Source: a virus
Virus record (IMG/VR): IMGVR_UViG_3300021495_000007
DNA: 53,435 bases
Direction: 5' to 3' (one strand)
The position numbers and the translations under genes were made by a program. The notes under the pieces were generated by a model, which did not search any database, was not told the origin of the DNA, and was given only the letters and a program-made list of their open reading frames with translations. This document shows positions 26,778 through 52,989 of the stretch, piece after piece; positions within the stretch are counted from its first letter, which is position 1; each line of letters starts with the position of its first letter.

Positions 26778-27518
26778 ATGATTCAAATCTCAATAAAAAA
26801 TAAAATATTTAGGGATATGTTAGAGACTATTCTTCCTATACGTGAAGAAACTAAATTGAGATTCGCTAAAGAAGGCTTGTGTTCTAAAATAACTGACTAT
26901 GGTAATATAGCATTAGTAGATGTTTCTCTTCCTAATGGTCTATTCAATGATTATTTCTTGGATGAAGATGTTGAAGTAGGATTAAATGTTAAGAATCTAC
27001 TACTCTATACTAAATTAGGTAATCCTGACGATAATATTAAAATAGAAATTACAGATAGATTCAAGATGCTTTTAAATAATTTCGAAATTGATATGGATAT
27101 TCTCGATCCTACCTATATGGCTTCTGCCTCGAACATCCCTGATGAATTCGAATGTAAATGTTTAGTTGATATAGAAGAAATAAGAAAAATTGCACGTGCA
27201 GCTAATCAAATCCGAAATGATACTCTCATCTTTGAACTCGATAATCTTCATGAGAATTTAACTATTTCTACAAAGAGTGAAGAAGAATCCATTACGGTTG
27301 AAACTTATGTGATTGATACTTCCGATAAAAAATCTACCCATAATTTAAAATCAGCCTATCCTGTTGACTTCATTCTTAGTATTACTAACACCCTCTATAA
27401 TTTGGGTATGCGTGAAATAGAAGTGGGATTCGGTAGTGAGTTCCCTATGCGATTATCGAGTCCTTTACATGAAACAGGAAAAGTGGTTTATTATATCGCA
27501 CCTCGTATTATAGACTAA
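26778..27518 (+). CDS. pcn: PCNA DNA sliding clamp
   Basis: 246 aa; IALVDVSLP...F.DY...VGLNV, SAYPVDFI, PMRL and C-terminal YYIAPRI PCNA signatures. Confidence 0.92.
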   Translation: MIQISIKNKIFRDMLETILPIREETKLRFAKEGLCSKITDYGNIALVDVSLPNGLFNDYFLDEDVEVGLNVKNLLLYTKLGNPDDNIKIEITDRFKMLLNNFEIDMDILDPTYMASASNIPDEFECKCLVDIEEIRKIARAANQIRNDTLIFELDNLHENLTISTKSEEESITVETYVIDTSDKKSTHNLKSAYPVDFILSITNTLYNLGMREIEVGFGSEFPMRLSSPLHETGKVVYYIAPRIID

Positions 27519-28230: not shown

Positions 28231-31200
28231 TTACGACATTGCTGCCTTCCAATAAACATCTCTGTCATCTGTAACAGCGGAAGGAGCATTTATCGTAAAC
28301 TGCGCATCTGTCACATCTGTCACCCAGCAATTCGCAACCTCACTATGTGTACCTGTGAGAGTTATAATGCTTGGAGCCCCGTCTAAACCATGGTTCACCA
28401 CAACACTTGAAGCTCCACTTGCTATAGTTGCTATACCCGATTTTTCAGTAGGATAGCCTTCGTTATTTTTAATTATCAATCCTGTCACTCCAGCTTGGTG
28501 TTCAACAATATTATTTCCTATGAACGTCCCTCTAAATATATTTCCCTTAATTATTACATCATCATTCCCACTAGCAATATAAACACCACGCATATAAGCA
28601 CTATTTTCAACAGCAAATAAATTATCAAGAATATACAGCCCGCTAACCTGGTCTGGATTAGCATTAATTGCGTATGTAACCCCCTGACCTGATTTACCTA
28701 CGTCTATAAATTGACAATCTCGTATAGTTATCCGCTTTTTAGATTGGACTTGAAGATAAATGCCTCTTGTTGGTAGATTCTTAAACGTACAGTGTGAAAC
28801 AAAAATATCTTTACATTCTCCATAAATCTCCATTCCTGCACGCGGTGGTTGCGTCCAACTATATGTTGGAACATCAGCAGAGACACAATTACTTATAGAA
28901 ACACTTTCACAATCTGAAATAAAGAAATGTGAACGATCTGATCCCATTTGTCCTACTGCTATACAATTTACAATATTCGCATTTTTTAGGTATCGGAAAT
29001 TAAAGAGAGTGGCTATGGGTTGGTTTAATACTTCACTAATACAATTCTCTACTGTTACATCATCTGCTGTCCATACAAATAAACCATTATTTACACCAGC
29101 TTCTGTGACATAAATAACATTGTTAATAGTAACTTTTTTATTTCTGGGTGTGCCTGTATGGGTATTATCTCCTGCCCACTCTATACAAACCGGTTCAAGT
29201 CCGCCTATTTCTCCGTTATACATAAAAATATCCGAAATCTCAATGTTCTCGGACCCGTAACCTACGAAAACAAAATGAGCAGTCACCTCAATCCCTGTTA
29301 ATTTACTTATCTGAATATTTTTAGACCGTATCACTTTTACTCCATCTATTCTTACATCGCTATCACCAAAATCATCGCAGAAGAGATCAGTCAATCGAAC
29401 ATCTTTAGCATGGCTTAACCATACAAGCCCTCCTTCATGAGATACACTGTCTCGAAAATGCTTTCCTGTACAATCATGGACACTAACTCTAATTATTGGC
29501 TCATCAGAAGTACCTTCTCCTTTGATAGCTGCTCGCCATATATTCTGAAAATAACAGTTTTTAACTATTAAGTCCTTGACACCAGGAATAACTTTGATAG
29601 CAGCATAACCATCAGTCTGATGTTCAACATTACCATCGAATTCAATGTCTTGAATCGTTATCCCATCATGATTAATGTTGAAGAATTCACAATTAGCTCC
29701 ATCAGCTAATCTGAGGATAGTATTCCGTCCTGTACCAGCGATTGTTATACTATCACCTGTTGTTGAAGTATTTCCTGTAATTGTAAACACGCCCTCTCCG
29801 AAAAATATCTTTCCTCCGTTTGATACGCTATTCATCGCTGTTCGAATTACACTTGTATCATCAGTGCCGGCAGCACCTTGAGTAATTGTTTCTCCATTTG
29901 CATTTTTTGCATAAATTATTCCATTATCTTTATATATAATTGCCGTATACGGTCCTCTTCCTCCCATTTCACCTATTATACTTTCAAGATATTCAATTCT
30001 TTCCTCTAAACTTGATATATTAGAGCTATGTACAAATCTTGCATATATATTCTTCCATCTGAAACCTAAAGATCCTAAATTATAAGATTCATCATCATAA
30101 GGAACAACATCTGCATTCTTTATATCTATTTGTGCTTTATCAGCGTCTCCCGATACGTGTATCCTTTCTGTGGGCGCTCCTACAGAATCAGTAGTTAAAA
30201 ATGAAAGAGCACCAGGAAAAGAAGAAGAGTTTCTATCAAATAATCGGATTTGAGCATGACCGTATGAAGGATCACCACCCGCCAATATAAGATCATGTTT
30301 ACCCCATAATCTTCGATCTAATTTAACATCATCATCTATATCTAAGATCGATGTACCTAAAGCACCAATTTTCGTAAAAGATCCAGTATTTGCAAATACT
30401 TCTATCCATCTGTGAGCAGAAGAGCCTAAATAGGATGAGAGATTGTCATAAGGTAATAAATGTGCATTTTTTATGTACACAATACTTCTGTCTGCATTAC
30501 CAGTAAGACTTAGTCTTTCAGTTGATGTTCCATTAGAATCCGGTGTCATTAAAGTTAAATCAGTTGAGGTTAGTCTAATCTGAGTATTCTCTGTTGTAGA
30601 ATTACTATATCCTATTGTAAAAGTATTATTGCTCCATATTCGAGATTCAACTTGGACATTAGAAAATAAGCTACTTACTGCATATATGTTTTTCCATCTT
30701 TTACTTGGGTTTCCTAAATCCTGTTCAGTATCAATGTACGGTATTAAATGCGCTCCTCTTACTGTAATATCAACGTTTCCACTACCCTCAGGTATCTCAA
30801 TGCGAGGGACTATCGACTGACCTGAAAATGTTCCTAATAATATTTTGCTATTACTCCCTGGTGTTAATTGGATTCTCGATGCAACAGCAGTATCTTCTGC
30901 TATTAAATTGAGACCATCACTTGAATTACCAACTACATCTCCATCAACTTTTAGATTATCAGTGCATTCAATTATATTTCCCGAATAAGAAGTAATCGTG
31001 TCAGTTTCTAATCCTGATTCACATTTGAGTAAACCGATCATTGATTGAGATCCATCTCTTGATAACTTGATATCACTTAAATTCTGAATTGAATATTCTA
31101 ATGCTGAGCAGTTACAGCTAACATTGCTACTTAAATTTTCTTCAAGATAATCTACTCGTGCATCTAAATCAGATATGTTGGCACTATTGGCCAGTATAGC

Positions 31201-32307
31201 ATCAGGAATAATAGTTCCGGAAAAATTGCCTTTTGCAGCATAGACGCATCGCCACGTATAACCCGAGGATCCTAAATCCCATCTGTTGTCTGTATACGGA
31301 AAGACATCTGCATTCTCTATTACTATATCGCCGTCGTCCCAACCTCCATGAATGTGAATTCGTTTAACCGGTCCTGAATCTCCGGGTGCGTATACCTCAA
31401 TATCGTTATAGAAGAATTTTATGTGGGGATAACCAACCGGAAATTCGGCTCCGCTGCCTATAGTCAATAGAGGATTGCCCCATATATGAGAATTCACAAC
31501 AAGATCCTTATCACATGTAAGTGTGTCACCTGAGACAGTGCTAATAGTGTTTGTTTTTAATCCTGCTTCACATTGTAATAATCCAGTCATTGGTTGAGAA
31601 CCGTCTCGCGAAAGCTTGATTGCACTTAAATTTTCAATGTTGTTTGCATTGGAAGTTATATTTGCACTATTGAGAAGGACTGCATCAGGAAGTATCACAC
31701 CTGAAAAATTGCCTGAAACTGCATAAATATTCTTCCACCTGTTACCACTACTACCTAAGTCTTGGTAATTATCTTCGTAGGGAATAAGATTTGAGTCTTT
31801 AATTTTAATATCAATAAAATCGCTTTTACCAGGAATTAACACACGAGATGCGATCGCTCCTCCTGATTGAGGAGTCCTCACAAGAATTTCGCCATTTCCA
31901 GTTGAATCCCAAGTATAGAGTTCTATCCGGGGGGCATGGGCGTCTAAATTGGATGCTAACAGCAAACCTATGCTGTCATTACCCCATAAAACTGCATCAA
32001 TTTTTAGTGGCTTTTGACAATTTAAAAATGATTGAGATGTAGTGGATATTGTATCGGTTTTTAAACCACTGCCACATACCAGCTCACCTTCCATTGGTTG
32101 TGAACCGTCTCTTGACAACTTGATATTACTCAGATTCTCAATTGCAAATTCTAAAGCAGAACAGTTACAACTTATATTACCACCACCAAGATTCGCTTCA
32201 ATGTATTCTATTTCATCTTGTAAATTAGGATAAACACTGCGAGTTAGTCTTACAGCATTACTCCAAATACTTTCGATTTTTGAATAGGATGAACCATTAT
32301 CGCCCAT
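28231..32307 (-). CDS. Tail fibre/receptor-binding protein with repeated shaft modules and C-terminal parallel beta-helix
   Basis: 3x LSRDGSQ(P/S)M, 5x LG-x4-W-x2-(I/V)(Y/F), GKIFFGEGVF start of a pectate-lyase-like beta-helix, C-terminal NHGLDGAP tip domain. Confidence 0.8.
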   Translation of the reverse strand: MGDNGSSYSKIESIWSNAVRLTRSVYPNLQDEIEYIEANLGGGNISCNCSALEFAIENLSNIKLSRDGSQPMEGELVCGSGLKTDTISTTSQSFLNCQKPLKIDAVLWGNDSIGLLLASNLDAHAPRIELYTWDSTGNGEILVRTPQSGGAIASRVLIPGKSDFIDIKIKDSNLIPYEDNYQDLGSSGNRWKNIYAVSGNFSGVILPDAVLLNSANITSNANNIENLSAIKLSRDGSQPMTGLLQCEAGLKTNTISTVSGDTLTCDKDLVVNSHIWGNPLLTIGSGAEFPVGYPHIKFFYNDIEVYAPGDSGPVKRIHIHGGWDDGDIVIENADVFPYTDNRWDLGSSGYTWRCVYAAKGNFSGTIIPDAILANSANISDLDARVDYLEENLSSNVSCNCSALEYSIQNLSDIKLSRDGSQSMIGLLKCESGLETDTITSYSGNIIECTDNLKVDGDVVGNSSDGLNLIAEDTAVASRIQLTPGSNSKILLGTFSGQSIVPRIEIPEGSGNVDITVRGAHLIPYIDTEQDLGNPSKRWKNIYAVSSLFSNVQVESRIWSNNTFTIGYSNSTTENTQIRLTSTDLTLMTPDSNGTSTERLSLTGNADRSIVYIKNAHLLPYDNLSSYLGSSAHRWIEVFANTGSFTKIGALGTSILDIDDDVKLDRRLWGKHDLILAGGDPSYGHAQIRLFDRNSSSFPGALSFLTTDSVGAPTERIHVSGDADKAQIDIKNADVVPYDDESYNLGSLGFRWKNIYARFVHSSNISSLEERIEYLESIIGEMGGRGPYTAIIYKDNGIIYAKNANGETITQGAAGTDDTSVIRTAMNSVSNGGKIFFGEGVFTITGNTSTTGDSITIAGTGRNTILRLADGANCEFFNINHDGITIQDIEFDGNVEHQTDGYAAIKVIPGVKDLIVKNCYFQNIWRAAIKGEGTSDEPIIRVSVHDCTGKHFRDSVSHEGGLVWLSHAKDVRLTDLFCDDFGDSDVRIDGVKVIRSKNIQISKLTGIEVTAHFVFVGYGSENIEISDIFMYNGEIGGLEPVCIEWAGDNTHTGTPRNKKVTINNVIYVTEAGVNNGLFVWTADDVTVENCISEVLNQPIATLFNFRYLKNANIVNCIAVGQMGSDRSHFFISDCESVSISNCVSADVPTYSWTQPPRAGMEIYGECKDIFVSHCTFKNLPTRGIYLQVQSKKRITIRDCQFIDVGKSGQGVTYAINANPDQVSGLYILDNLFAVENSAYMRGVYIASGNDDVIIKGNIFRGTFIGNNIVEHQAGVTGLIIKNNEGYPTEKSGIATIASGASSVVVNHGLDGAPSIITLTGTHSEVANCWVTDVTDAQFTINAPSAVTDDRDVYWKAAMS

Positions 32308-38921: not shown

Positions 38922-41900
38922 TCAAAATACGGATCTGATCGCTTTACCTATTTCTGTTCTTATTATTTCTTTTAAGCTTTCTTTGTCAACTCCTTTTGGT
39001 GGCTGACCTTCGAATTTCATGTTTATATCTACTTGGTGTTTTTGTGTTACAGTAGTTCCTGCTGGTATAGTAGGAGTCGGTACTGGAGTTGGTACCACTT
39101 CAGTTTGTGCAGCTATAGTTTGATTTCCTATACCCTTCGATACTCCTTCACTAATGTTGTTTACTAATTCTTTAGAGGTTGTTTCTATGCCTCCTGTAAC
39201 TGTAACAGTTGATTCTAAATTCTCTCCGAACAAATTTAATATTTTTTTACCCTCTTTATCGAGCTCTATATTGAGAGTGATTGGTTCACTTTCTATTTGT
39301 TTTATTGCCTCATTCCAGTCTTCCATGAAACTTTCACTATTTAAATCTAATGTTAGCTCTTTTTCGGTATCTATAGTGTTTACTTTGTTAACGAAATCAT
39401 CTATTCGCTCAAATAAATCATTCCATGTCTCGACATTCAATAATTCCTTGAGATCATCAGATAGCGTCATGCTTTTTAATTGCATATCCATGGTATTTAA
39501 GTTCTCCATAGCATATTTTATAGCCTCAGGAAGAGTTTTTGTTAGAGTAACTTCAGGAGCTTCAGCCCCGCCCTCTTGAGCTTTCTTTATTATTTCTTTT
39601 ATATCCTCGGGAAGCTTACCTGATTTCTCTTCGACCTCATCATATATATCAAGAATGTCTTTAAATGATTGCTCACTGCTTTTCGATAATGACTTAGGTA
39701 CACCATAAATATCATGGAGTGACGATGTTATACCCGAAGATGCTTTATCCCATTGAGACTCTAAATCTCCAACTCCAACTGTACTTTCTCGGATTAATCG
39801 TAGATTACCAGTTACCCACCTCCATGCTTCTTTATATGCTTCTCGTTCTTCATCGGTGGTTGCTTTCATAGATTTTCTCTTTAATTTTTCTGCGAGTATA
39901 CGAGCTTTTACCGCCCCCTCTACTATTTTTTCTGAAGCTGCTGTTTTATCACCCTGTTTTGCATACTTTATACTTTGTTTAACCAGTCTCCCGATTGCAT
40001 CAACTTCATCATCATATTGATTTATAACTTGACGAGTAATACCAGTTGCTTTTTCTTCTATATCTTTCACTTCGTCCCATGTATCATACATTCCGGAATA
40101 AGCACCAGCTAAATCTAAAGAAACATCATATAAATCACGGGAGGAACGAGTAAGGTCATCAAAAGATCTTTTTAATTCATTGTTTAAGTTTTTTAAATCA
40201 ACTTCAGCTTTTATTACATTTAAAATCGCTCCTACTACTTTTGAATACTGAATCTGTAATTTCTCGTTACTGGTAAGATATATGTTTGTTAGTTTATCTC
40301 TATCTTCTAATATTTTATTGCCTTTGAACCAAGTGTCAGCAAGATTCTTATCTACTATCACCCATTTATTACCCATCCATATAAGATCATGACCAGTTTT
40401 TAATAGGGCTTCTCGTACTTCGACGCCATTTTTACCTATCTTGATTGATGTGCCATGAGCTTTATTATAATTTTTAATTGTTCTTACTACATTTTTGTAT
40501 GTTAATGAAGCTTCGTCATTTAGTGCTATTTCCGCTCGTCTCGCTTGTGCTTGCTTATCCCATAATTCTAATTCTTCTTCTCCAAATCTTCTTTTCTCCC
40601 TAAATATATTCTGAAGATCCCTGAAATTCTTGAACTCTTCATCCGTTAAAACGCTTCGACTATTATATTCATCAATTATAGCATCTGCAGTTTTACGCGC
40701 TAATGAAATACTAATCATATCAACTTTTGTTAATTCTTCTTTTCGCTTGCTTTCATCTTTTATACTGTCAGTAATATGCTGCCTCAATTTAGGCTCTATT
40801 TCTAACCACTCATCATATTCCTTAATAGTTTGTAAATGATCATTACTAACATTATTTTGCTGACGTACCCATTTAACACCTTCTCTTAATGCAATATTTC
40901 TTTGATCCCACAACTTACTTTCGAATTCAAATGCTTTAGTCGCATCTCGTGCAGATTCTTTCATTTCTTCCATGCCTTCAATGAGGACTCTTTGTGGAGT
41001 ATTAAACCCTTCTAAGACTGAACGAAAATCAACAGAAAACAATTTGCCAAAAACTTTAGCATTCTCAACAATAGCTTTTGTTCCAAGTGCTATATAAGAA
41101 AAGAGTGCTTTATATACTGGAGGTAATTTTCCTATGTTCTCACCTAATCTGTTTATCTCCTGAACATAAACATCAGTAGCGGTAGTAGCGCTATCCATTT
41201 CGTCATTCAATTTATTAATCAATTCGGCAGCTGCAGCTAACTGCTCTTCCACAGCTACCAATACACTCTTAAAACCAAGTAGAGTAGGTTGTAAGGCATC
41301 ACCCAATTCTCGCCTTGCAGCCTCAGCTCTGTTCTGAAACACTTGTAACTTTGCAGAAGTTTTAGTAATAGCAATCGAATATTCTTTCTGTAGTGATGTA
41401 CCCCACTTAAGTTCTTCATGAGCAGTCTCCATATTCTTCACTAATTGTGGATAATTCTCAGCAAGTGTAGCGATAGCAAATCCTGCAATCTCTCCGAAAT
41501 GTTCATGCGCTTTCTCCATTCTCTGGACTCGTGAAGGTATTTCATTAAGCTTCTTAAGATACATCATTAGCGCTTGCATTGGATCTCTTTCCAACGCTTC
41601 TGCCCATGCCTTACCCTGGTCACCCATGAATTTGGTTATCTTAGATGCATTTGCAGCTAATTGCTGAAAAGTACGTCTCAATCGAGTACCAGCTCTTTCA
41701 CCTGCCATACCTGCTCCAACAAGTGTAGCAGATAATGCAGCTGCTTGGTCTACCGTAAAGCCCATCATCTTACCTGCAGCACCAATATTCTTCATTGCAG
41801 AAACTATCTCTTCAGTTGTAGCAGCAGTTGTGTTTTCAAGTTCATTAATGATAGCACCCAATTTTTCAATTTCAGCGATAGGTAGTCCAAAAGCCTCACG

Positions 41901-43421
41901 TATTTTTGCTAATGCTTCTGCTGCTTGATCTGCTGTAAGAGTTGTAGCTATACTCAACTTTGCAACAGTTTTAGTAAAGGAAAGTAAGTTTTGAGTACCT
42001 GAAATACCCAAGCGTCCAGCCTCACTTGCTATACTTGCTAACGCCGTAGCAGCCATTGGTACATCTTTACTTAGTTTTGTTAATGCATCTCCTAATTCAT
42101 TCATTTGATCAATTGTCAAATTGGCTGTCTTTCTTACCTCAAATAATGCATCCTGGAAAGAAATAAAAGGATTGAATAGCCAATCAGCTACCTGACCTAT
42201 AGTTCGTAGTGCAGCGTCAAGTAGAAACACGGGACCAAGGACTGTAAGGAATCCCATGCCAACTTTCTTAACCAAGCCACCGATTTTTTCGAGACCAAGA
42301 CCAAATTTACCCCAAGTTGTACCATGTCTTTTGAGACTCCTGTCCACTGTTAATATAGCACTGTTTTGCATCTTTGTTGTAGCATCAAGTTCTTTTCCTA
42401 ATAACCGAGCTGTTTCTATTTGACGTACACGTGCCTTAAGTTGTTCTTGTAATGATTTATTAACTGCATTTATGCCTCGTTTTTCAATTTCTGCTGCAGC
42501 TTTCATCTGTAATGCAGCTAATCTACCTGATTTAACTTCCTCTCTGAAAATTCTTGAATTGGAATTCAATAAGATATTAAGGAACTTATTGGCATTTGTC
42601 TGCTTTTCTAATTCATTAGTTACTATTTTAAATGAAGACGCAGCACCTCTTTGCGTGTTAGCCATGCGTTTGGACGCAGCTGCTATTTTATCTATCACTT
42701 TACCAAACGACGAATACTGTTTGACTGCCTTCTTGAAACTTTCCGTATCACTCCGATGCCATTTATGAGAACGCTGTAAAGAATCGCTAAGTTTATCGTA
42801 GTTTTGTGCAGTAGATTGAACTACCTTAGAACCTGAACGCTGTATTTTATAAGTTCGTTGTAAAGTACTACTCAGCTTATCATAATTTCCAGAGGCAGAA
42901 CGCATAACATCAGCATTAAATTTCTGCCACTTACCAGTATCTTGTAGCGTCTTACTAAGCTTATCATAATTCTTGACAGAAGCACTAATTATTTTTGAAG
43001 AAGCTTTCTGCTGCTGGTAATTTGCTTGGAGAGAATCACTAAATTTATCGTAATTCCTAAGTGTAGACTGAATAGTCTCTGCATTTGACTTTTGCCACTT
43101 ACTGGTTTCTCGCAAAGACTGATCAAGTTTACTATAATATGAAGTAGAAGACTGAATAGCTTTTGCTGATGTCACATGGTGTTTCGCAACATTCTGAGTA
43201 GATGTAGCTAATTTAGAGTTTGCATCATATACACCTTGAAGTTTCTTCTCTAATCCACTAAACAGTGGTGTGAAATTTCGGAATGAATCTCTATAAGCAT
43301 TAGAAATCACTTTAGTGCTACGAGCCAACTTTGTTATCCGTGCTTGTAGCCTTTGGAGAGTACGGTCTACAACTCCCGCACCAGTTATACTAAGTCCTAC
43401 ATTATATTCATAATCAGGCAA
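38922..43421 (-). CDS. Tape measure protein (TP901-like core), TTG start
   Basis: 1499 aa, helical; core FQDALFEVRK...LSKDVPMAATALASIASEAGRLG...GERAGTRLR; follows the chaperone genes. Confidence 0.92.
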   Translation of the reverse strand: MPDYEYNVGLSITGAGVVDRTLQRLQARITKLARSTKVISNAYRDSFRNFTPLFSGLEKKLQGVYDANSKLATSTQNVAKHHVTSAKAIQSSTSYYSKLDQSLRETSKWQKSNAETIQSTLRNYDKFSDSLQANYQQQKASSKIISASVKNYDKLSKTLQDTGKWQKFNADVMRSASGNYDKLSSTLQRTYKIQRSGSKVVQSTAQNYDKLSDSLQRSHKWHRSDTESFKKAVKQYSSFGKVIDKIAAASKRMANTQRGAASSFKIVTNELEKQTNANKFLNILLNSNSRIFREEVKSGRLAALQMKAAAEIEKRGINAVNKSLQEQLKARVRQIETARLLGKELDATTKMQNSAILTVDRSLKRHGTTWGKFGLGLEKIGGLVKKVGMGFLTVLGPVFLLDAALRTIGQVADWLFNPFISFQDALFEVRKTANLTIDQMNELGDALTKLSKDVPMAATALASIASEAGRLGISGTQNLLSFTKTVAKLSIATTLTADQAAEALAKIREAFGLPIAEIEKLGAIINELENTTAATTEEIVSAMKNIGAAGKMMGFTVDQAAALSATLVGAGMAGERAGTRLRRTFQQLAANASKITKFMGDQGKAWAEALERDPMQALMMYLKKLNEIPSRVQRMEKAHEHFGEIAGFAIATLAENYPQLVKNMETAHEELKWGTSLQKEYSIAITKTSAKLQVFQNRAEAARRELGDALQPTLLGFKSVLVAVEEQLAAAAELINKLNDEMDSATTATDVYVQEINRLGENIGKLPPVYKALFSYIALGTKAIVENAKVFGKLFSVDFRSVLEGFNTPQRVLIEGMEEMKESARDATKAFEFESKLWDQRNIALREGVKWVRQQNNVSNDHLQTIKEYDEWLEIEPKLRQHITDSIKDESKRKEELTKVDMISISLARKTADAIIDEYNSRSVLTDEEFKNFRDLQNIFREKRRFGEEELELWDKQAQARRAEIALNDEASLTYKNVVRTIKNYNKAHGTSIKIGKNGVEVREALLKTGHDLIWMGNKWVIVDKNLADTWFKGNKILEDRDKLTNIYLTSNEKLQIQYSKVVGAILNVIKAEVDLKNLNNELKRSFDDLTRSSRDLYDVSLDLAGAYSGMYDTWDEVKDIEEKATGITRQVINQYDDEVDAIGRLVKQSIKYAKQGDKTAASEKIVEGAVKARILAEKLKRKSMKATTDEEREAYKEAWRWVTGNLRLIRESTVGVGDLESQWDKASSGITSSLHDIYGVPKSLSKSSEQSFKDILDIYDEVEEKSGKLPEDIKEIIKKAQEGGAEAPEVTLTKTLPEAIKYAMENLNTMDMQLKSMTLSDDLKELLNVETWNDLFERIDDFVNKVNTIDTEKELTLDLNSESFMEDWNEAIKQIESEPITLNIELDKEGKKILNLFGENLESTVTVTGGIETTSKELVNNISEGVSKGIGNQTIAAQTEVVPTPVPTPTIPAGTTVTQKHQVDINMKFEGQPPKGVDKESLKEIIRTEIGKAIRSVF

Positions 43422-43431
43422 TTTTCCTAAA

Positions 43432-43725
43432 TTATTCTTCTGGTAATGTTACCCTTTCAAATATCAAATTGTGTAAGAAAATATAATCCTCTCTAAGAAA
43501 ATCTTCTATTTCTATATCTTTACCTATAATAGGTTCTTTCAAAAATGCCCTAAACAATGCATCAATTACTGGTTTTGTATATACTTCTTCTCTTGTAGGA
43601 TTTATCCCTAATTTATCTACTATTCTAAGTAGAGTATATGGTGTAATATTATTAACAGTAACTTCTAATCCACTTGGACATTTAATCTTTTTTGTATTCT
43701 TCTTTTTGTAATCTTCTATTTTCAT
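43432..43725 (-). CDS. Tail assembly chaperone paralog 2
   Basis: Aligns with 43928-44284 (YKK...PSGL...ALF.AF...EDF..ED). Confidence 0.65.
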   Translation of the reverse strand: MKIEDYKKKNTKKIKCPSGLEVTVNNITPYTLLRIVDKLGINPTREEVYTKPVIDALFRAFLKEPIIGKDIEIEDFLREDYIFLHNLIFERVTLPEE

Positions 43726-43922
43726 TTCAACAATCCCCTCCTTTTCATTTCTTCAATGCGTGCTAAATGAGATTCAAGCTCTTCACCACTCATAGTCTTA
43801 CTACCCTCTTCGGAACGAGCAGTTGCAACCAAAAAATCTAAATATATTCTTTCCATTAAACTCAAATCCCGATACGCATCTAACAGATCCGAGGGACGCA
43901 AACCAAAACGTTCACATACCAC
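43722..43922 (-). CDS. gpT-like chaperone extension, probably reached by -1 frameshift
   Basis: GTG start without RBS; its frame is open back through GGATTTTTC at the end of the upstream chaperone. Confidence 0.6.
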   Translation of the reverse strand: MVCERFGLRPSDLLDAYRDLSLMERIYLDFLVATARSEEGSKTMSGEELESHLARIEEMKRRGLLK

Positions 43923-43927
43923 TCGGA

Positions 43928-44284
43928 TCAGGTAGAAAAATCCTTGTTATCATCTCTAATCTCCTCAAGCTCTTTGGCATCTGATAAACTAATTTGTTTT
44001 ATAATAGTCGCAAGAATAGCCTTGAAATCTTCAGATGTGAAATCCTCAACTGTCATCTCATCAGGTATAACTGGAGAAACTATAAATGCTTTAAAGAGAG
44101 CTTCGATATGTGCAGGAGAAAAGTAGTCATCGCCATCATCTTTGAATTGCTTTCTTATCTTTAGATGCACGAGTGGCGAGATGTCTTTGGTTTTTATTAT
44201 TAGACCCGAAGGCAATTTATAGTCTTTAATCTTCCCTTTCTTGTATTCTTCAAGATTCATTTGTTCATCTCCAAATAAATGCAA
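43928..44284 (-). CDS. Tail assembly chaperone (gpG-like) paralog 1
   Basis: Between tail tube and TMP; start likely MNLEEY after GGAG. Confidence 0.7.
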   Translation of the reverse strand: MHLFGDEQMNLEEYKKGKIKDYKLPSGLIIKTKDISPLVHLKIRKQFKDDGDDYFSPAHIEALFKAFIVSPVIPDEMTVEDFTSEDFKAILATIIKQISLSDAKELEEIRDDNKDFST

Positions 44285-44311
44285 TAAATATATTGTTATG
44301 CAATATTAGAA

Positions 44312-44797
44312 TTAGTGTGTTGATATGTTAGTAGCATCATAATCTACCGACTCAGTGACCAAATCACCAGCAGCTGTGGATGTTCTATATGAATGGAATT
44401 TAACACCATAGATTACCCTATTGTAATCTGCAGAATTGCTACTCGATGTCGTATTCATCAAAATCTTACAAGACTGAAGACTCTCACCATACATACCGGT
44501 AGCAGCAAGTAAATCAAGATGACTGTTATTACCTGCATAAATGAATTCATTGTAAGTTGCATTTTTACTATATAGATTACGCTCTAATGTACCTGTGACC
44601 TCCTGCACACCTTCAATCATCGAAACAGCATCTCGTGAACCAACAACGAAAATTTTATCTATATCTACAGAAGTATCCATCGTAAGAGAATTCAGCAATG
44701 GATCTCTGCCATCGTGCCAGATACTTTCATTAGGAGCGGATTCTAATCCTATTCTAACTCGATTCTTCCAACCTTTGACAGCCCCAAATTCAGGCAT
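44312..44797 (-). CDS. Tail tube protein
   Basis: 161 aa, GGAGGT RBS, tube-like motif VGSR...EG...VTGTL, canonical position. Confidence 0.75.
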   Translation of the reverse strand: MPEFGAVKGWKNRVRIGLESAPNESIWHDGRDPLLNSLTMDTSVDIDKIFVVGSRDAVSMIEGVQEVTGTLERNLYSKNATYNEFIYAGNNSHLDLLAATGMYGESLQSCKILMNTTSSSNSADYNRVIYGVKFHSYRTSTAAGDLVTESVDYDATNISTH

Positions 44798-44843
44798 TTT
44801 AATCTACCTCCATACTATTTTTTATTGTTATTTTTAATATCAG

Positions 44844-47264
44844 CTATATTATAACAGTGGGTTCAGGAGAAGTATGTTTACGAACCCTTAGGTTTTTTAT
44901 ATATGCATGTGCTTTGAGATCAGATCCTGTATATTTTCCTCCGATATTCAAAAAATCTAAAGTTGCAATTCCTGAAATATCAAGATTAGTATTAAGATAA
45001 GTTTCAGTGTAAGATAAATTTTGAATTGTAATATAAGCGGTATTAGAAAGACGCTTTAGAGAACATCGTAGCCAAACTCCAACAGTAGGATCATTACACC
45101 AATAGTCAGACTCTTGAAGGCTATTACCAATAGATATAGCGAGGCGAGAAGTAGGTTGAGTATTACAAAAAAGTGAAGATCCCCCATAATGTTCAAAAGC
45201 TATAAAATCCGATATCGAATTGAAAGTACCGAAATCATTAGACGCTCCAATAAAAAACAAACTACTGGGAATAGAAGATTCGAGATAGTATTCAAATTCG
45301 AGAGCAAAATTATTGAGACTCATTGGATGGTAAGCATAATCATCTGAGATAATTCGATTAGTATGAATATCCATACTTGCAGCATCGGTCTTAGCATATA
45401 AATATTTCGAATTGCCAGTTACCCATTTACTCGTATCTAATAGATAACCTTTGATAGCAGATTGATTACAAGTAGCATATCCTATCGCGCAACCTGCAGT
45501 AGAATCAGAAGTAGGACAACCAAAATACCACATTCGAATAGTGTCCCCACCTATATCATCTTTAGCTATAACCGCATTTTCGATTCTATAACCATCCCAC
45601 TCACCATCAGGGGCGAGATCCATAACCGGATTCTCGAAATATCGCTTCCAATTCACTAAATCCGTACTATATAGAAAGCCCAATTTCCAGTGAAGACCAC
45701 TCGACTGCCCATTATATCCCATAATATACTTACCAGATTCTATTTCACAAATTTTTGCATTCGCAACTCCATGATCATCCCAGGTAAACGGACCATCGCG
45801 TTCAACTACTGGATCGCCACCATTAAGTGGTGTCCATCCTGTTTCTCCATCACTATCACTTGTTATAGCTCCATAAATAGCAAAGAGGGGAGCTTTTGTA
45901 CCTTCCATATACATCACCCACCTGCCATCAGAAAGTTTGATAGCATATGGAAGAACCATAGAATACGGACTTTCAAGATTAAAATCACTCGCTGTGAGTA
46001 TTGGATTTCCGGAATACTTTGTCCAGTTAATACCATCAGAGCTTTCGGCTATGCCTATAGCATAAGAACCACCCGCCTTTCCGCCATAAAACATGATATA
46101 ATCATTTGTACCTCGCTTTACAACTGAACCAATATTAACATCATCAGCATCCCACTCTCCAGCAGTGCCTTCTAATACAGGATTATTTGGGTCCTTTGTC
46201 CAATGAATGCCATCATCGCTTGTTGCTCGTCCTATCCGCCCGATCCCTGAAGCGTCTTTCGCATCGTAGTACATAATGTATTTCCCATTCTCTCGCACCA
46301 AATAGCCTGTCGCATTTATCATTAATGTAGGATCTCTAACTCCAGAAGAATCCCACCCTGAATCAGACTTGATAAGAACGGGATTCCCTTCATAACGAGT
46401 CCACGGTTTTAATTTAACAACATCAAAAATTTTATCATAGTAAACAGGAGAACTACCAGTCTTAAAATCATCAAAGAAGTCAAAGGTTGCATCTCCATTA
46501 CTACTTGGATGAGGACCAGTATCTCCATAAATCATCCATATATACACAGTACTACCAGCAGGTATTACAGGAATTTTGCACCAAATAACAGCATGATCAT
46601 CGCCCCATGATTCTATCCAGAAAGGTAATTCATTATCACTATTATCAACAAAATGGATATCAGAACCATCATCTGAAGAACTATCAAAATCGAAATTGCT
46701 TGGATCCAATTCTATTTTCACTTGATAATCATATAGTGTCTCACTGGTTCCTAAAATTGTAATCATTTGTCTATTCCCCTTCACAATCTTTAGTTGAGAT
46801 GCATCATAATCAACTGATTCTGCAACAATATCTCGTGCAGCATGAGCAATTCTGTAATTATGAAACTTAACATTGGTAATCACTCGTTCATACCCATCAT
46901 CAACATCATCAGATTCTGGATTCCATAGTATTTTACATTCCAAACCTTCTGTTCCGCCCAATCCTGTTGCTTTTAACAAATCATAATGCGTAGAATCATT
47001 CACATAAATGAACTCATTGTAGGTAGTATTTTTGCTATACAAATTGCGTTCGAGTGAACCAGTAACATCTTTAACACCTTCCACAATGGAAACAGGCAGC
47101 CTACTACCAATTACTGAAATCTTATCTATGTCTACACCCGTTTCGGTAGTAAATGAATTAAGTAAAGGGTCACGACCAGCTTTCCAGATACTCTCGTTTA
47201 ACGCCGAAGATACACCAATTCTAATTCGATTATTCCATCCCTTAACTGCTCCATATTCAGGCAT
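44844..47264 (-). CDS. Tail tube paralog fused to DUF2341 and a five-bladed glycosidase-like beta-propeller
   Basis: First ~160 aa roughly 60% identical by eye to 44312-44797; DYQVKI...DGSDIHF...FWIESW (DUF2341); repeated A.S.DG..W.K...NP(V/I)L propeller blades with RDP; C-terminal RKHTSPEPTV. Confidence 0.8.
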   Translation of the reverse strand: MPEYGAVKGWNNRIRIGVSSALNESIWKAGRDPLLNSFTTETGVDIDKISVIGSRLPVSIVEGVKDVTGSLERNLYSKNTTYNEFIYVNDSTHYDLLKATGLGGTEGLECKILWNPESDDVDDGYERVITNVKFHNYRIAHAARDIVAESVDYDASQLKIVKGNRQMITILGTSETLYDYQVKIELDPSNFDFDSSSDDGSDIHFVDNSDNELPFWIESWGDDHAVIWCKIPVIPAGSTVYIWMIYGDTGPHPSSNGDATFDFFDDFKTGSSPVYYDKIFDVVKLKPWTRYEGNPVLIKSDSGWDSSGVRDPTLMINATGYLVRENGKYIMYYDAKDASGIGRIGRATSDDGIHWTKDPNNPVLEGTAGEWDADDVNIGSVVKRGTNDYIMFYGGKAGGSYAIGIAESSDGINWTKYSGNPILTASDFNLESPYSMVLPYAIKLSDGRWVMYMEGTKAPLFAIYGAITSDSDGETGWTPLNGGDPVVERDGPFTWDDHGVANAKICEIESGKYIMGYNGQSSGLHWKLGFLYSTDLVNWKRYFENPVMDLAPDGEWDGYRIENAVIAKDDIGGDTIRMWYFGCPTSDSTAGCAIGYATCNQSAIKGYLLDTSKWVTGNSKYLYAKTDAASMDIHTNRIISDDYAYHPMSLNNFALEFEYYLESSIPSSLFFIGASNDFGTFNSISDFIAFEHYGGSSLFCNTQPTSRLAISIGNSLQESDYWCNDPTVGVWLRCSLKRLSNTAYITIQNLSYTETYLNTNLDISGIATLDFLNIGGKYTGSDLKAHAYIKNLRVRKHTSPEPTVII

Positions 47265-47299
47265 AACACTCTCCAGTAATTACTTTTCCGTATAATTAT

Positions 47300-47422
47300 A
47301 AAATCGCATAAGACGCATATATTTAGCCGTGAACAAAATATTTTTACTTATCCTATACTTTATATTACCTTCCACAATAAAATTGCAATGAACATGATGT
47401 ATGGACGTCTCACGCAAAATTT
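47300..47422. repeat. Dispersed quasi-palindromic element, copy H
   Basis: 47306-47328 is a 22/23 inverted match to copy E 19239-19261; core CCTATACTTTATATTACC; on the minus strand it begins at the upstream stop codon. Confidence 0.85.
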
Positions 47423-48169: not shown

Positions 48170-48477
48170 TTTTTCCTACTCGGATTCACATAAAAGAATT
48201 TTTCTTCATAAAAATGATAGCCTTCTGATGTACCATGTATTATCGCATAATAACCTCCTTGTTGGAAAGAGGCATTTGAAAGATAAACATCAAGAGAGTA
48301 TTCACCTGTTGCATTATGATCCATGGGTTTGTTTTCAATGATTTTATTGTTATCGAAATCTACAATATCAAGATAAATTTCATCAGGATCCGCTAACTCG
48401 TTATTCGTATCACGAACTTCTATTTTGAATGTTATACTATCACCAATCTCATACCTTTTTTCGACCGTTCTAATCAC
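48166..48477 (-). CDS. Ig-like virion protein
   Basis: GDSITFKIEVRD...DPD...GEY...GYY Ig-like pattern; GTG start at 48477 after AGGG. Confidence 0.6.
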   Translation of the reverse strand: MIRTVEKRYEIGDSITFKIEVRDTNNELADPDEIYLDIVDFDNNKIIENKPMDHNATGEYSLDVYLSNASFQQGGYYAIIHGTSEGYHFYEEKFFYVNPSRKK

Positions 48478-49537
48478 CCCTACATTTATGAACAAAATGT
48501 AGTAAACTATCTTCGGGAGTAATCAGTCTGAGGGACGGATTGCTCCTCGCTACTCTCTCGCCGATATTCCATGCCCCTACCGTGTCAGCTGCCTCCGTAT
48601 AACCACAGCTGACACAGCTGAACACTTCATCACGCCGACGATTCGCTCTACTCGTGAACCCACACTTAGGGCATTTGAGGGAGCTAAATGCAGGATTCAC
48701 TTTATAAAGGCAGAAACCTTCCACCTTTCCCATCTCTTCTAATTTATGAGCGAGATGAGCATAAGCCCAATTATTGTTTAGTCTCCTGAATCGTCTACTT
48801 CTTCCTCTCTTGCCTTTGAATGACAATTTCTCTACTGCAAAATCACAACCCGGATACGCTTCCACTATTTCCTTCGCTATCCTGTTCAGTCCTTGTTTAT
48901 ATGCCGATAATCCTTTATACTTTCGCCATTTAGTTCTTATCCTCAAATCTCTCAGCTCGTCCCCGAATCTTTGCCCGTCTGATACTACCGCAGGATGATT
49001 CATTCCCACATCTATACCGACCACCTTAGTATTATGTGATTTTTTCTCTGCGATCTCAAAGAAAAAAGTGGCATAGTAATCATTCCCCTTTCTTTTTATC
49101 TTAAAGGATTTTCTTAGTTTTCCTCTTTCTAATGCTTTATTAAACTCCCTATGCTTCTTACAAGGTAGTTTCAGCCTCTTTCCTTTTCTCAGACTAATAA
49201 CATTTAGCCAGAGGTCGAATTCTTTTGTTTGCAAATCGGAGATAATATAAGCGGAACACTCGTTGAGGTCTATCTCATTACCGCTATAACAAGGTCTCTT
49301 TTTCTGCCCTATCTTTTTCGCACCCTTTACGATTTGCCATGCCTTTACCGCTGCATCTCTTATCAGCCGCCCGCCTCTTGTATATTCTTTTGGTGGATAA
49401 CTCCCAAAGGAATTTTTAAATACCCAAAATAGCTTTATGAAATGATTAACTTTATCAGTCCAAAACGATATTAGCTGATTAAGCTCTTTCTTCTTGCCTG
49501 TATTTGGGTATATCTTTAGTTGATATGACTTTATCAT
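48470..49537 (-). mobile_element. tnpB: Solo TnpB (IS200/IS605 or IS607 superfamily RNA-guided nuclease), no tnpA
   Basis: RuvC I VGIDVG, II AVEKL, III ADTVGAWNI; Zn finger CPKC/CVSC; subterminal hairpin CTACATTT-N7-AAATGTAG 48480-48502; GC higher than flanks. Confidence 0.9.
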
Positions 49538-49538
49538 C

Positions 49539-50912
49539 TCACTCTCGCTCTATTGTTTCTATATTTATGCTAATATTGAATTTTTTAATATCAATAGTGA
49601 GATATTTAACAAGAGCCTTAGACCTCTTCACAGTTGTCAGGATAGGAGCAAATAACAGAGGAGCAGTAAGCGAATACTCATAAACCATTTGGATCAGAGG
49701 CACAAAAGCAGCTTCAGTTGAAATTGTTAGTATGCCTTTGGTTATACGTTCACTACTATACGTATCTTCAAGTGGCATCAAAACTAAATCTTCTAACATG
49801 CTTTCAAGTGTAACTTTAGAAGCTGTACTAAGAATCTGACTGAATCTGATATTAGAAGTAATGCTTGATATATGATTTAAGAATAATTTTAAAGGTACGT
49901 GCAAATCTCTAACAAAACTACTTAATGTATTAACTGTTAAGTAATAATTAATGAAGGTATCAAATACTGAGATTAAATTTGGATATATACTAAGTGGAAG
50001 AAGAAACAGAAAAGAAGATTGAAAATCAATATGCGGTTTTAAACCCAAAGATAAATAAATATTGAGATAATCAGTAGGAACAATGATATGTAGCTTAAAC
50101 AATAGAGACAAAGAACTAAGTACATTTCTAACAGATGCGAATCGAAATTGGAATTGAAGCGGCATTAGAACCAATAAAGAAGTAGAGATGATTTCTTCCC
50201 ATGCAGGATAAGCATAATAATTTTCAGCATCAACTACCGGTTTTATTGAATCAATTATGCCTTTTTCATATTTATAAGACAAAAAAGGATGAAGATTATA
50301 AGGAGTTAGAAGAAAAAAGAGTAAGGAAGATTCAAATTCATTAGTGAAAGAAAAATCATATACTAAATCGAAACGAAGAAGAGATTCAAAGAATTTTAAA
50401 CACTTGTAGTCTAATTTAATAGTTTTTGAAATTAATCCTTCATTTAGAAATTCATAGAATTCGTCACAATTAAGAATGAACTGTAGATAGATATGTTCAG
50501 GAGGCAACCATGATGGAAATGCATAATCGTTTTCGCTTCTAACAACTGGTTTAATAGTATCTGAAATAGTTTCACCATAAGTGTATTGAATAAAAGGATA
50601 GAGAAGAGGAGAAGAAATTAATAAATCACTATCAATTAAATCAAGGATATTAGCATGAGCATCGAGAAAGTTTAACGTGTTAGGCGTAAAGTATTCATTA
50701 GTAATAGGGAAAGAAGGAGAAAAAGAAACTGGGATGGTGAGACAAATATCAGAAATTGGAACTGCAAATTGACCATAAATACGATTATTGGCACAAACGG
50801 TAGCTTTGAACGTATCAAAACGAGAAAGAACACTCTTTAACGATGGAGCTTCTTCATAAACTACCGGGGGTAGAAAATTATCCATTCCGATGACAGTCTT
50901 TTCTAAAGACAT
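49539..50912 (-). CDS. Putative virion protein, Phe/Leu/Ser/Pro-rich with internal repeat
   Basis: 457 aa in the structural operon; duplicated LxPF...Y...DxIKPVV..EN.YA.P.W segment. Confidence 0.65.
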   Translation of the reverse strand: MSLEKTVIGMDNFLPPVVYEEAPSLKSVLSRFDTFKATVCANNRIYGQFAVPISDICLTIPVSFSPSFPITNEYFTPNTLNFLDAHANILDLIDSDLLISSPLLYPFIQYTYGETISDTIKPVVRSENDYAFPSWLPPEHIYLQFILNCDEFYEFLNEGLISKTIKLDYKCLKFFESLLRFDLVYDFSFTNEFESSLLFFLLTPYNLHPFLSYKYEKGIIDSIKPVVDAENYYAYPAWEEIISTSLLVLMPLQFQFRFASVRNVLSSLSLLFKLHIIVPTDYLNIYLSLGLKPHIDFQSSFLFLLPLSIYPNLISVFDTFINYYLTVNTLSSFVRDLHVPLKLFLNHISSITSNIRFSQILSTASKVTLESMLEDLVLMPLEDTYSSERITKGILTISTEAAFVPLIQMVYEYSLTAPLLFAPILTTVKRSKALVKYLTIDIKKFNISINIETIERE

Positions 50913-50919
50913 TTTTTAC

Positions 50920-51996
50920 TTAAACAACCACAACAGGTTCAGGGGAAGAAAATTTCCGAGCATTAATATATAAACCCATTTTGTCTATATAATAATTATA
51001 ATGAAGTAGAATCTCGGTATCGGTTAATGCCCTATGATAAATACGAACTTCATCAATAATACCTTTAAACGGTGAATGAAAAGTAGAACCATAATGATTC
51101 GCTCCAATAAACCATGAATAAGTTTCTGGCTTCGACATTCCTGATTTCATACCTCTGTATTGCCCATCAACATAAATCTTATGGACAGTCCCATCTGTTA
51201 CAAGAGTATAGAAATGCCAATTAGTATCAAGTGTGTAATTGTTTCCTTCATTACTCCAAGCATAAGCACCAACACCGATACCTAAATAACCATTATTATC
51301 GAATCCAAAATAATGTCTGTCTGTACCTGTACTTGGTGATTGTGTGCCTACAATAATACAATCCTTTTGATTTGCAACAGCACTCTTAGCCCAAGCCTCA
51401 ATTGTAACTTTATCTGTAATATTTAAATCGGTATAATTCGGAAAGAAAATGTAATCATCCACACCATCGAATGATCCAGCACGATTAAATTTACCGTTTG
51501 CTACTGTATTTGCTCCATTATAAGCGACACCATGATTACTCCCAACTGAATCTTTTACTTCTCCTGTTGCACCTGTCCACACCAATTCGTCCAGATGCCA
51601 TAAAGCAACTACATCTTGGATATCAAATTGTTCAAATAAATTATAACCATCACTAAGAGAAGAAGCAGCAGGATTACCGTAAATTATCCATATTTTCTTA
51701 CTTCTATTCGCTGGGATATAAGGAATCTTACACCATATAACTGCTTCATCAGTACTCCATGACTCTATCCAGTAAGATAACCCTTTCCCTGTTTCATCTC
51801 TAAATCGTATATCGCTACCATCTGATTTACATCTTTCGAAAGGAAAATTACTATTATTGAGAACTATTCTAACTTGATAGTCTCTTAAGTCTGTATTACT
51901 ACCTATAATGCGAATCGGACGAATATAGCCAAATTTCTCAAACGGTGAATAAGGATTCCTAAGAGGCAGCATAGAAGGTAAGGAGTATTTCGTCAT
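50920..51996 (-). CDS. DUF2341 + LamG/concanavalin-like lectin protein
   Basis: DYQVRI...DGSDIRF...YWIESW; ALWHLDE...GKFNRAGSFDG...WHFY...GIIDEVRIYHRAL; ends RKFSSPEPVV. Confidence 0.85.
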   Translation of the reverse strand: MTKYSLPSMLPLRNPYSPFEKFGYIRPIRIIGSNTDLRDYQVRIVLNNSNFPFERCKSDGSDIRFRDETGKGLSYWIESWSTDEAVIWCKIPYIPANRSKKIWIIYGNPAASSLSDGYNLFEQFDIQDVVALWHLDELVWTGATGEVKDSVGSNHGVAYNGANTVANGKFNRAGSFDGVDDYIFFPNYTDLNITDKVTIEAWAKSAVANQKDCIIVGTQSPSTGTDRHYFGFDNNGYLGIGVGAYAWSNEGNNYTLDTNWHFYTLVTDGTVHKIYVDGQYRGMKSGMSKPETYSWFIGANHYGSTFHSPFKGIIDEVRIYHRALTDTEILLHYNYYIDKMGLYINARKFSSPEPVVVV

Positions 51997-52002
51997 TTCT
52001 AA

Positions 52003-52989
52003 TTACACAATAACAGTAGGTTCAGGATATGCATATTTACGAACAATGAACGGTGGCAAGAACTCACCTCCCGCACAACCATCGGTCATAAGACCAATAT
52101 CCCCTTTATCATAACTATTATCAGTAACTAAAAATATTGTATTCCCATTTTCGAGTACTTCAATAGTATCACCATAACGTCTAATCTTAATTGTAACCGT
52201 GTCAGAAACTCCAGGTGCACTCGTATCATCTGCCAAACTACTTACACAATGAGCATCATTATTTTTGCCTATCCACCGAAATGTATCACGTGCACAAGTT
52301 GTCCCACTGGTATCAATACCTGTATAATCATTTGTATACGAATAATGATAGAAATGAGACGTATCAGTATAACAAAACACCATACCTATAATATCATCAT
52401 CTACTTCTTTAGTTTTAATAGTAATTTCAAAATTACTAATGGAAAGACCGGTCATTAAAGCACTCCCGAAAGTCTCACCACCGTTAGCTGTAAAAATATT
52501 GGATGCCTGTATCATTTTCTTATTAATAAAATCGAGATCCCAATTAGACGGTGATTCACCAGTACCTTCATCTACGACTGTATAATCTGAAAGGAAATGA
52601 ATACCAGAAAAATCATCATAGAAATCAAAGGTGGCTAATGGATTACTTTTAGATTCAGCAGAGGGATTACCATACACCATCCATAGAAATGTAGAACTCT
52701 CTTCAGGTATATACGGAACTCTACACCATATTATGGCTTGATTGTCACTCCAAGATTCTATCCAATAAGAAACTATTTCACCAGAATCATCTCTGAATCG
52801 AATATCAGCGCCATCAGGTCTGCATTTCTCAAACGGAAAATTATCTTGAGTGAGTGTAATCTTGACTTGATAGTCCTTGAGAGCAGCACCAGAATTCTCT
52901 ATCTTGATAGGTCTAATGAAATTGAAACCCCTAAATAATGAATAGGGATTGGGCAAGGGTATCGGCTGAGGTAGAGAATATTTAGCCAT
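52003..52989 (-). CDS. DUF2341 + TSP-C/ConA-like lectin protein
   Basis: DYQVKI...DGADIRF...YWIESW; DDDIIGMVFCYTDTSHFY; ends RKYAYPEPTV. Confidence 0.8.
   Translation of the reverse strand: MAKYSLPQPIPLPNPYSLFRGFNFIRPIKIENSGAALKDYQVKITLTQDNFPFEKCRPDGADIRFRDDSGEIVSYWIESWSDNQAIIWCRVPYIPEESSTFLWMVYGNPSAESKSNPLATFDFYDDFSGIHFLSDYTVVDEGTGESPSNWDLDFINKKMIQASNIFTANGGETFGSALMTGLSISNFEITIKTKEVDDDIIGMVFCYTDTSHFYHYSYTNDYTGIDTSGTTCARDTFRWIGKNNDAHCVSSLADDTSAPGVSDTVTIKIRRYGDTIEVLENGNTIFLVTDNSYDKGDIGLMTDGCAGGEFLPPFIVRKYAYPEPTVIV

Follow-up and report, generated by a model that had tools for sequence, protein, structure and literature searches.

Known decorations of phage tail tubes are small immunoglobulin-like (Ig), FN3 or carbohydrate-binding module (CBM) domains that add weak adhesion. 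In lambda gpV and T5 pb6, every subunit carries, after its tube fold, an accessory surface domain with a small Ig-like fold, accompanied neither by an enzyme-like payload nor by a second tube gene. A different solution is found in SPP1 (gp17.1*) and in the lactococcal 936-group phages (TpeX), where a frameshift provides a minority of tube subunits with a glycan-binding extension (PMC6669499). Here we analyze the tail region (positions 43,432-47,264) of IMG/VR record IMGVR_UViG_3300021495_000007, a 53,435-nt stretch of viral DNA, referred to below as the window, that probably derives from a virus of an archaeon. This region encodes two tail-tube paralogs, one of which is fused to a large glycosidase-like payload. 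We propose, with a probability of roughly 0.6, that the fused paralog is a minor tube subunit that arose once by duplication, co-assembles with the plain tube protein and displays an exchangeable payload on the tail.

The fused gene (44844-47264, minus strand) encodes an 806-aa protein comprising a tube domain (residues 1-160; 46785-47264), a DUF2341 adaptor (approximately residues 165-270; 46455-46772), a five-bladed, glycoside hydrolase (GH)-like beta-propeller (residues 276-605; 45450-46439) and a C-terminal beta-sandwich that ends in a conserved RK..PEP.V motif (residues 606-806; 44847-45449). The open reading frame (ORF), the Pfam matches and the structural models agree on this architecture, which a first-pass annotation made from the sequence alone had already outlined. 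The plain tube protein (161 aa; 44312-44797, minus strand) is encoded downstream of the head-tail connector genes and ahead of those for the chaperones and the tape measure. Residues 1-158 of the fused protein align without gaps to this second tube, at 63% identity (E 2e-66), and the two genes are separate, complete ORFs, 46 nt apart, that have individual starts and ribosome-binding sites. The match to curated tube families is faint, with Pfam Phage_tube_2 reaching just 12.8 bits (E 0.087) against a cutoff of 27 and no significant PHROG. The AlphaFold2 model of the 161-aa protein (predicted local distance difference test, pLDDT, 75) returned in Foldseek tail-tube, Hcp and tube-like chains alone, all with probability 1.0, including those of phage 812, Sf11, monocin, lambda gpV, SPP1 and Haloferax virus HFTV1. 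The VIA search, an independent all-against-representatives comparison, likewise returned tube, Hcp and tube-like chains, with Z scores up to 9.6. Because both searches converge on these chains, the assignment of a tube-protein beta-sandwich fold to the modeled 161-aa protein is sound.

To place the two paralogs within their family, tube relatives were collected from a library of 1.8 billion proteins (15 clusters) and the plain ones were aligned. The N-terminal domain of the fused protein retains 10 of the 10 residues that are invariant in this alignment. On the inferred tree, the fused N-domains form a monophyletic group (100/100) that is sister to the plain tubes of the same clade, with the outgroup plain tube P0006 falling outside both. 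This topology indicates a single duplication of the tube gene, followed by loss or exchange. Both copies are under purifying selection, with a median ratio of nonsynonymous to synonymous substitutions (dN/dS) of 0.08, at dS of about 0.9, for the fused N-domain and of 0.04 for the plain tube, which is 89-100% conserved in relatives.

We extended the comparison to 30 further loci from IMG/VR and JGI metagenomes, all annotated with one script. The fused gene is intact in 14 further, independent contigs, which rules out an artefact of assembly or frameshifting as the origin of the fused ORF, and the plain tube gene lies directly downstream in all 15 instances, the window included. The converse does not hold: searches of two whole records, L001 (66.5 kb) and L002 (36.3 kb), found the plain tube and no fused one, and the same was observed in the 7.9 kb examined of the 21.9-kb contig L033. 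That the plain tube is never lost where the fused one occurs suggests that fused subunits may be unable to form a tail by themselves, possibly because of steric constraints. The mixed-subunit tail put forward in the first-pass annotation thus becomes the most economical reading, since the fused gene is always followed by a plain tube gene, keeps the invariant residues of the family and evolves under purifying selection; co-assembly itself is what we infer from these observations.

The payload begins with DUF2341 (PF10102), which is matched at residues 199-270 with 80.9 bits (cutoff 23.4, E 9e-23) and is 46-50% identical to the DUF2341 domains of two other proteins of the window, of 328 and 358 aa. 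The propeller that follows matches Pfam GH32N (PF00251) with 35.8 bits (cutoff 22.1, E 9e-9), over profile positions 15-148 of 307 only, and GH130 (PF04041) with 23.8 bits (E 2.5e-5), under the cutoff of 26; the orthologue P0004 reaches 28.6 bits with the latter profile. Profile searches with the propeller yielded strong matches to GH130, GH117, GH137, GH43 and GH32 structures. A model of residues 161-806, built with 51 homologues, has a pLDDT of 85, and a VIA search with its residues 276-605 returned GH137 BT_0996 (5mt2, Z 31.5), the GH130 phosphorylase Teth514_1788 (9fj8, Z 28.8, 22% identity), GH130 BDI_3141 (3taw, Z 28.4) and 3qz4 (Z 28.0), as well as GH43, GH117 and GH32 enzymes. The four matches for which Z scores are given superpose with root-mean-square deviations of 2.5-3.0 Å over 274-292 residues, at 14-22% identity, and establish a five-bladed beta-propeller as the modeled fold of the payload. 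The C-terminal region of some 200 aa consists mostly of beta strands and is modeled as a beta-sandwich with lower confidence (pLDDT 50-90). In Foldseek, this region and the propeller co-align with two-domain GH32 and GH43 enzymes, in which a beta-sandwich likewise follows the propeller.

The motifs that had prompted the glycosidase-like label are present in the sequence, RDP at residues 310-312 and S.DG..W at 349-356 and 408-414, and the GH137/GH130/GH43/GH32-like fold bears that label out. The five blades are unusually alike, each carrying an Asp-box-like S.DG..W repeat, and sequence alignments to solved enzymes consequently slip by whole blades. Set against the catalytic motifs of GH32 (WMNDPNG, RDP and EC) by sequence alone, RDP falls on blade 1, off the GH32 position, and C505-E506-I-E507 falls on blade 4. 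Among 16 viral and cellular homologues, down to approximately 33% identity, R310-D311 (blade 1), E454, E507 and E562 are kept in all or all but one. The propeller thus has in common with GH137 BT_0996 and with GH130, GH43 and GH32 enzymes the fold, the Asp-box repeats, the Arg-Asp pair on blade 1 and conserved acidic residues on blades 3-5, and it differs from all named GH families in having no family-level assignment. The conserved residues resemble an active center, and we consider the propeller to be probably an active enzyme of glycoside-hydrolase type. Its closest cellular likeness is to DUF2341-propeller surface proteins, such as that of a Candidatus Eisenbacteria metagenome-assembled genome (P0022), with 34-37% identity over 98-100% of the payload; these proteins are encoded in cellular genomes and, unlike the fused protein, lack a tube domain.

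The first-pass annotation did not recognize that this payload is one of many exchangeable cassettes. At least seven payload types follow DUF2341 in the fused proteins, which share 77-92% identity in their tube domains. Pfam matches identify a GH130/32-like propeller, GH43, BNR_4, a metallophosphoesterase (Metallophos) and LamG_3 among them; others are a divergent propeller with a weak sialidase-CBM-like match and types for which Pfam recognizes nothing beyond DUF2341. Proteins that have a 22-aa N-terminal peptide and no tube domain provide a second anchor for these cassettes, which are 79-91% identical over 440-585 aa between the two classes. The 328- and 358-aa proteins of the window belong to this short-anchor class, and in three relatives (L027, L030 and L034) a short-anchor DUF2341 gene occupies the slot between the 140-aa connector-position gene and the tube gene. 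At the far end of the cassette, the terminal motif (V/I)RK(Y/F)..PEP.V(I/V)(I/V) is common to the 19 DUF2341 proteins compared, a few of them with small departures.

Comparison of the window with its near-twin L003 captures one such exchange. The payload DNA (window 44900-46700) is 99-100% identical between the two, whereas the flanks, including both tube domains and the chaperone genes, are 83-93% identical, and at the left junction, inside DUF2341, identity climbs from 83-91% to 100%. This mosaic indicates a recent recombination event of cassette size, with one of its junctions inside DUF2341, given the gap between the identity of the payload and that of its flanks. The two short-anchor genes of the window (50920-52989, minus strand) encode a 328-aa protein with a weak TSP_C-like match and a 358-aa protein with LamG_3, both with the N-terminal peptide M.KYSLP..LPL.NPYS.F and the same RK..PEP.V C-terminal motif as the fused tube. 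DUF2341 proteins are also encoded downstream of the tape measure gene in two distant relatives (L013:12778-14442 and L015:11014-12702), which have a 36%-identical tube, a single G and T and neither G2 nor a fused tube. Their presence there implies that the use of DUF2341 in virion modules predates the tube fusion.

Downstream of the plain tube gene, two homologous putative chaperone genes flank a gpT-like ORF. G1 (43928-44284, minus strand) is listed with 118 aa; a likelier start, ATG at 44260, gives 110 aa, as in several relatives (110-124 aa). G2 (43432-43725, minus strand) encodes 97 aa and is 31% identical to G1 (E 2e-13), in keeping with the homology that the first-pass annotation had noticed. 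None of G1, T or G2 matches a curated tail assembly chaperone family in Pfam or PHROG. Language-model neighbors assign G1 to 'putative tail assembly chaperone' (score 0.95) and place G2 (score 0.89) near a cluster in which 20% of members carry Phage_TAC_7. The T segment (66 aa; 43722-43922, minus strand) is in the -1 frame relative to G1 and overlaps its end, both lying between the tube and the tape measure genes. Its frame opens six codons before the G1 stop, at the sequence AAG GAT TTT TCT (43934-43945, minus strand), the probable frameshift site, which contains the stretch GGATTTTTC (43935-43943). Within it, GGATTTT is invariant in 11 close and four distant relatives, the latter including those with the 36%-identical tube, and adjacent synonymous sites vary. 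Because this conservation coincides exactly with the opening of the -1 frame, G1 and T probably constitute a classical G/GT pair, with predicted slippage on T_TTT, and the conserved putative slip site together with the frame of T lends support to the gpT label. Close relatives conserve the T segment at 82-98%, distant relatives at 41%.

The arrangement resembles lambda-type G/GT in having two ORFs between tube and tape measure, the second in the -1 frame, and a conserved putative slip site where the first one ends. It departs from it in the slip site, T_TTT, which is non-canonical and not an X_XXY_YYZ heptamer, and in the additional G paralog after T, for which we know of no described counterpart. 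G2 follows T by an ATGA overlap, its start overlapping the T stop, and has no T of its own. It is present in every close relative, with or without a fused tube, at dN/dS of 0.03-0.18, and absent from the distant relatives L011 and L013-L015, which have a single G and T. We propose G2 to be an additional G paralog of older origin, which would serve the tail in general; that it coats part of the long tape measure as a second G species is speculation. The presence of an extra G paralog beside a probable G/GT pair raises a second, smaller question about tail assembly.

On the basis of these results, we propose the following scenario. The major tube gene would have been duplicated once, in an ancestor of this virus clade, giving rise to a minor subunit, and a DUF2341 adaptor carrying an exchangeable payload would have been joined to the C-terminal end of the duplicate. 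The tube domain of the fused protein would co-polymerize with the 161-aa tube protein around the tape measure, placing an outward-facing enzyme at some positions along the tail, where it may bind or cut host surface glycans or matrix polymers during adsorption. Payloads would be replaced by recombination at two conserved junctions, one inside DUF2341 and the other at the C-terminal RK..PEP.V motif, and cassettes would also be shared with virion-module proteins bearing the 22-aa N-terminal peptide instead of a tube domain. In this scenario, G1 and T would be an ordinary G/GT pair produced by -1 frameshifting and G2 a paralog acting as a general tail chaperone. Co-assembly, position and copy number on the tail, catalytic activity and substrate are the conjectural components of the scenario.

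Several observations weigh against this proposal. The presence of the fused protein in the virion, and in its tube, is a prediction, and a single specialized ring of fused subunits fits the data as well as subunits scattered along the shaft. The stem branch of the fused clade is long (0.43, versus 0.10), which shows substantial change after the duplication, and this change could include altered assembly properties. As to the payload, its catalytic machinery fits no defined GH family. The Pfam GH130 score falls short of its cutoff. Among sequence alignments to GH130 structures, the phmmer one to 3TAW and the profile ones to 7FIP and 9FJ8 are weak or blade-shifted, and in them non-acidic residues stand opposite the catalytic Asp of the EDPR motif of blade 2; a phmmer search of the 806-aa protein against PDB sequences returned a marginal GH130 match (E 0.012) as its sole result. 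Furthermore, some of the sister payloads (LamG_3) are binding modules and not enzymes. A complex prediction for the plain tube and the fused N-domain, run without controls, scored 0.00 and counts neither way.

Alternative roles for the fused protein can be weighed against the same evidence. The fused paralog might form one specialized ring, for instance the one that opens the tube at the distal tail complex or the one that closes it under the terminator, and thereby a collar of six enzymes at a fixed position. Tube-fold paralogs are common as ring-specific parts of solved tails, tube-like chains of baseplates and necks dominate both the Foldseek and the VIA lists, the fused tube invariably has a gene and a ribosome-binding site of its own, and the long stem branch (0.43), together with 37% divergence from the plain tube, leaves enough room for a changed interface. 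Nevertheless, the sequence marks no position-specific interface and keeps all of the family-invariant residues, and a Dit-like candidate for the distal tail is already present downstream of the tape measure. In L030 and L034, moreover, the slot of the fused gene holds a DUF2341 protein that is not anchored by a tube domain, which points to a slot for optional decorations rather than for an essential ring. We regard the single-ring arrangement as rather unlikely, though as the main rival to scattered incorporation. It is also conceivable that the fused protein acts outside the virion, its tube domain oligomerizing a free enzyme into an Hcp-like ring that would be released at lysis against polymers of the host or of a biofilm. 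The payloads are indeed enzyme-like, Hcp-type rings are stable alone and Hcp structures figure among the fold matches. Such a role is improbable given the location of the gene, flanked by the head-tail connector genes on one side and the major tube gene on the other and behind a shared upstream element, its constant pairing with a plain tube, a tube domain nearly as constrained as that of the major tube, and the occurrence of the same cassettes on other proteins encoded within the virion module.

The first-pass annotation had further raised the possibility of a dedicated chaperone for each tube type, which would make G2 that of the fused tube. The coexistence of two tube and two chaperone paralogs in one module invites this idea, and the distant relatives that lack G2 (L011, L013-L015) also lack a fused tube. 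The suggestion does not survive the wider comparison, however, since L001 and L002, searched as whole records, and L033, over 7.9 kb, keep an intact G2 with no fused tube, and G2 is under purifying selection between two viruses of this kind (dN/dS 0.11 at dS 0.8). G2 occurs independently of the fused tube, and its role as a dedicated chaperone of that tube is rejected on these grounds; we accordingly give the general notion of one chaperone per tube type very little credence.

The minor-subunit reading, which we prefer, can be extended to a plug-and-play system of virion display. Under this broader proposal, which we advance tentatively and at somewhat less than even odds, DUF2341 would act as a socket and the C-terminal motif as a clasp, and cassettes such as GH-type and BNR propellers or metallophosphoesterases would move by recombination between two anchors: the duplicated tube domain in the tail shaft, and the 22-aa peptide at other sites of the particle. 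Such a shaft would be more than a conduit bearing sticky Ig-like domains and would become an enzyme-studded organ able to digest glycan or matrix layers of the host.

Set beside the closest described systems, the fused tube shares with SPP1 gp17.1* and 936-group TpeX a C-terminal, outward-facing, glycan-recognizing module on a minority of subunits, a property that in the present case is deduced from the genes. In both cases the decorated form always accompanies an undecorated one (here in 15 of 15 contigs), and the extension varies between related phages, with conserved stretches bracketing the variable module. The means of production is different, since SPP1 and the 936 group obtain both forms from one gene by programmed frameshifting, whereas here the decorated form is encoded by a separate paralogous gene with a tube part that is 63% identical to the plain one. 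The nature of the extension also differs: theirs is an adhesin or CBM of approximately 100-250 aa, and here it spans approximately 640 aa and comprises DUF2341, a GH-type propeller and a beta-sandwich, or other enzyme-like cassettes. Lastly, the host is in this case probably an archaeon. With lambda gpV, which is among the fold matches, and T5 pb6, the fused protein has in common a tube fold followed by an accessory surface domain.

The paralogous gene in place of a frameshift, the enzyme-type payload, the DUF2341 socket with conserved junctions and the sharing of cassettes with a second anchor are, as far as our comparisons extend, the new elements of this system. No tail tube carrying a GH-type or other enzyme domain was described in the literature searched, and none of the results linked DUF2341 to phage tails, in line with the impression of novelty recorded in the first-pass annotation. 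A tblastn search of 50,697 phage records with the 806-aa protein and with the 457-aa protein described below returned no match. If the proposed reading is correct, the tail shaft can host catalysis and support rapid adaptation to hosts or niches, through an enzyme-type module of 70 kDa that close relatives exchange for others, with at least seven types in all. The role of display socket would give a function to DUF2341, a domain that is widespread and of unknown function, and large proteins could be displayed on siphovirus-like tails with the fused tubes as a natural scaffold. The locus is also one of few leads on how uncultured archaeal viruses handle host surface glycans.

In this region, the minus strand carries all of the virion-module genes, and every ORF described in the first-pass annotation is present at its position. 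The module begins with a 123-aa ORF, followed by the 328- and 358-aa DUF2341 proteins, the 457-aa protein, an inserted tnpB and three small ORFs in connector position (100/109, 109 and 140 aa). A 156-nt intergenic element then precedes the fused and plain tube genes, after which come G1, T, G2, the 1499-aa tape measure protein (38922-43421, minus strand; phrog_28, E 5e-51, plus 20 further tape measure families) and large distal-tail proteins. The order from the 100-, 109- and 140-aa genes through the fused tube, tube, G1, T and G2 to the tape measure is the same in the window and its relatives. The intergenic element (47265-47420), named Element H in the first-pass annotation and located just upstream of the fused gene as described there, has a mean column identity of approximately 79% across six loci, in which a tube gene of either kind, fused or plain, comes after it. 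TATA-like stretches occur in its AT-rich sequence, and the tail genes probably have their promoter or regulatory region here.

The plus-strand half of the window encodes a PCNA-like protein (26778-27518), an ERCC4/HhH nuclease (13732-14712), an anaerobic ribonucleotide reductase (NrdD; 20112-21794) and a PrimPol-like protein. This set would fit an archaeal virus with an anaerobic host.

The tnpB gene (48470-49537, minus strand; Cas12f1-like TNB domain, phrog_506) separates the 457-aa gene from the 100-aa gene as an insertion, which is absent at the corresponding site of the related loci surveyed (e.g. L003, L001, L002 and L024); the gene downstream of it, listed as 109 aa from a TTG start, overlaps tnpB. 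The 457-aa protein (49539-50912, minus strand) occupies the position of a major capsid protein and has no family match. Its counterparts (L001:5138-6775, L002:4971-6806 and L034:279-2009) conserve the C-terminal 350-385 aa, approximately, and the N-terminal region is variable, resulting in proteins of 457, 545, 576 or 611 aa; in the L002 counterpart, the variable region is weakly similar to the LamG-containing 358-aa protein. Among the distal-tail proteins, one of 1358 aa (28231-32307, minus strand) shows a local match of 52.9 bits to the endosialidase tailspike catalytic-domain family (End_tail_spike), and may represent another glycan-directed activity, located at the tail tip.

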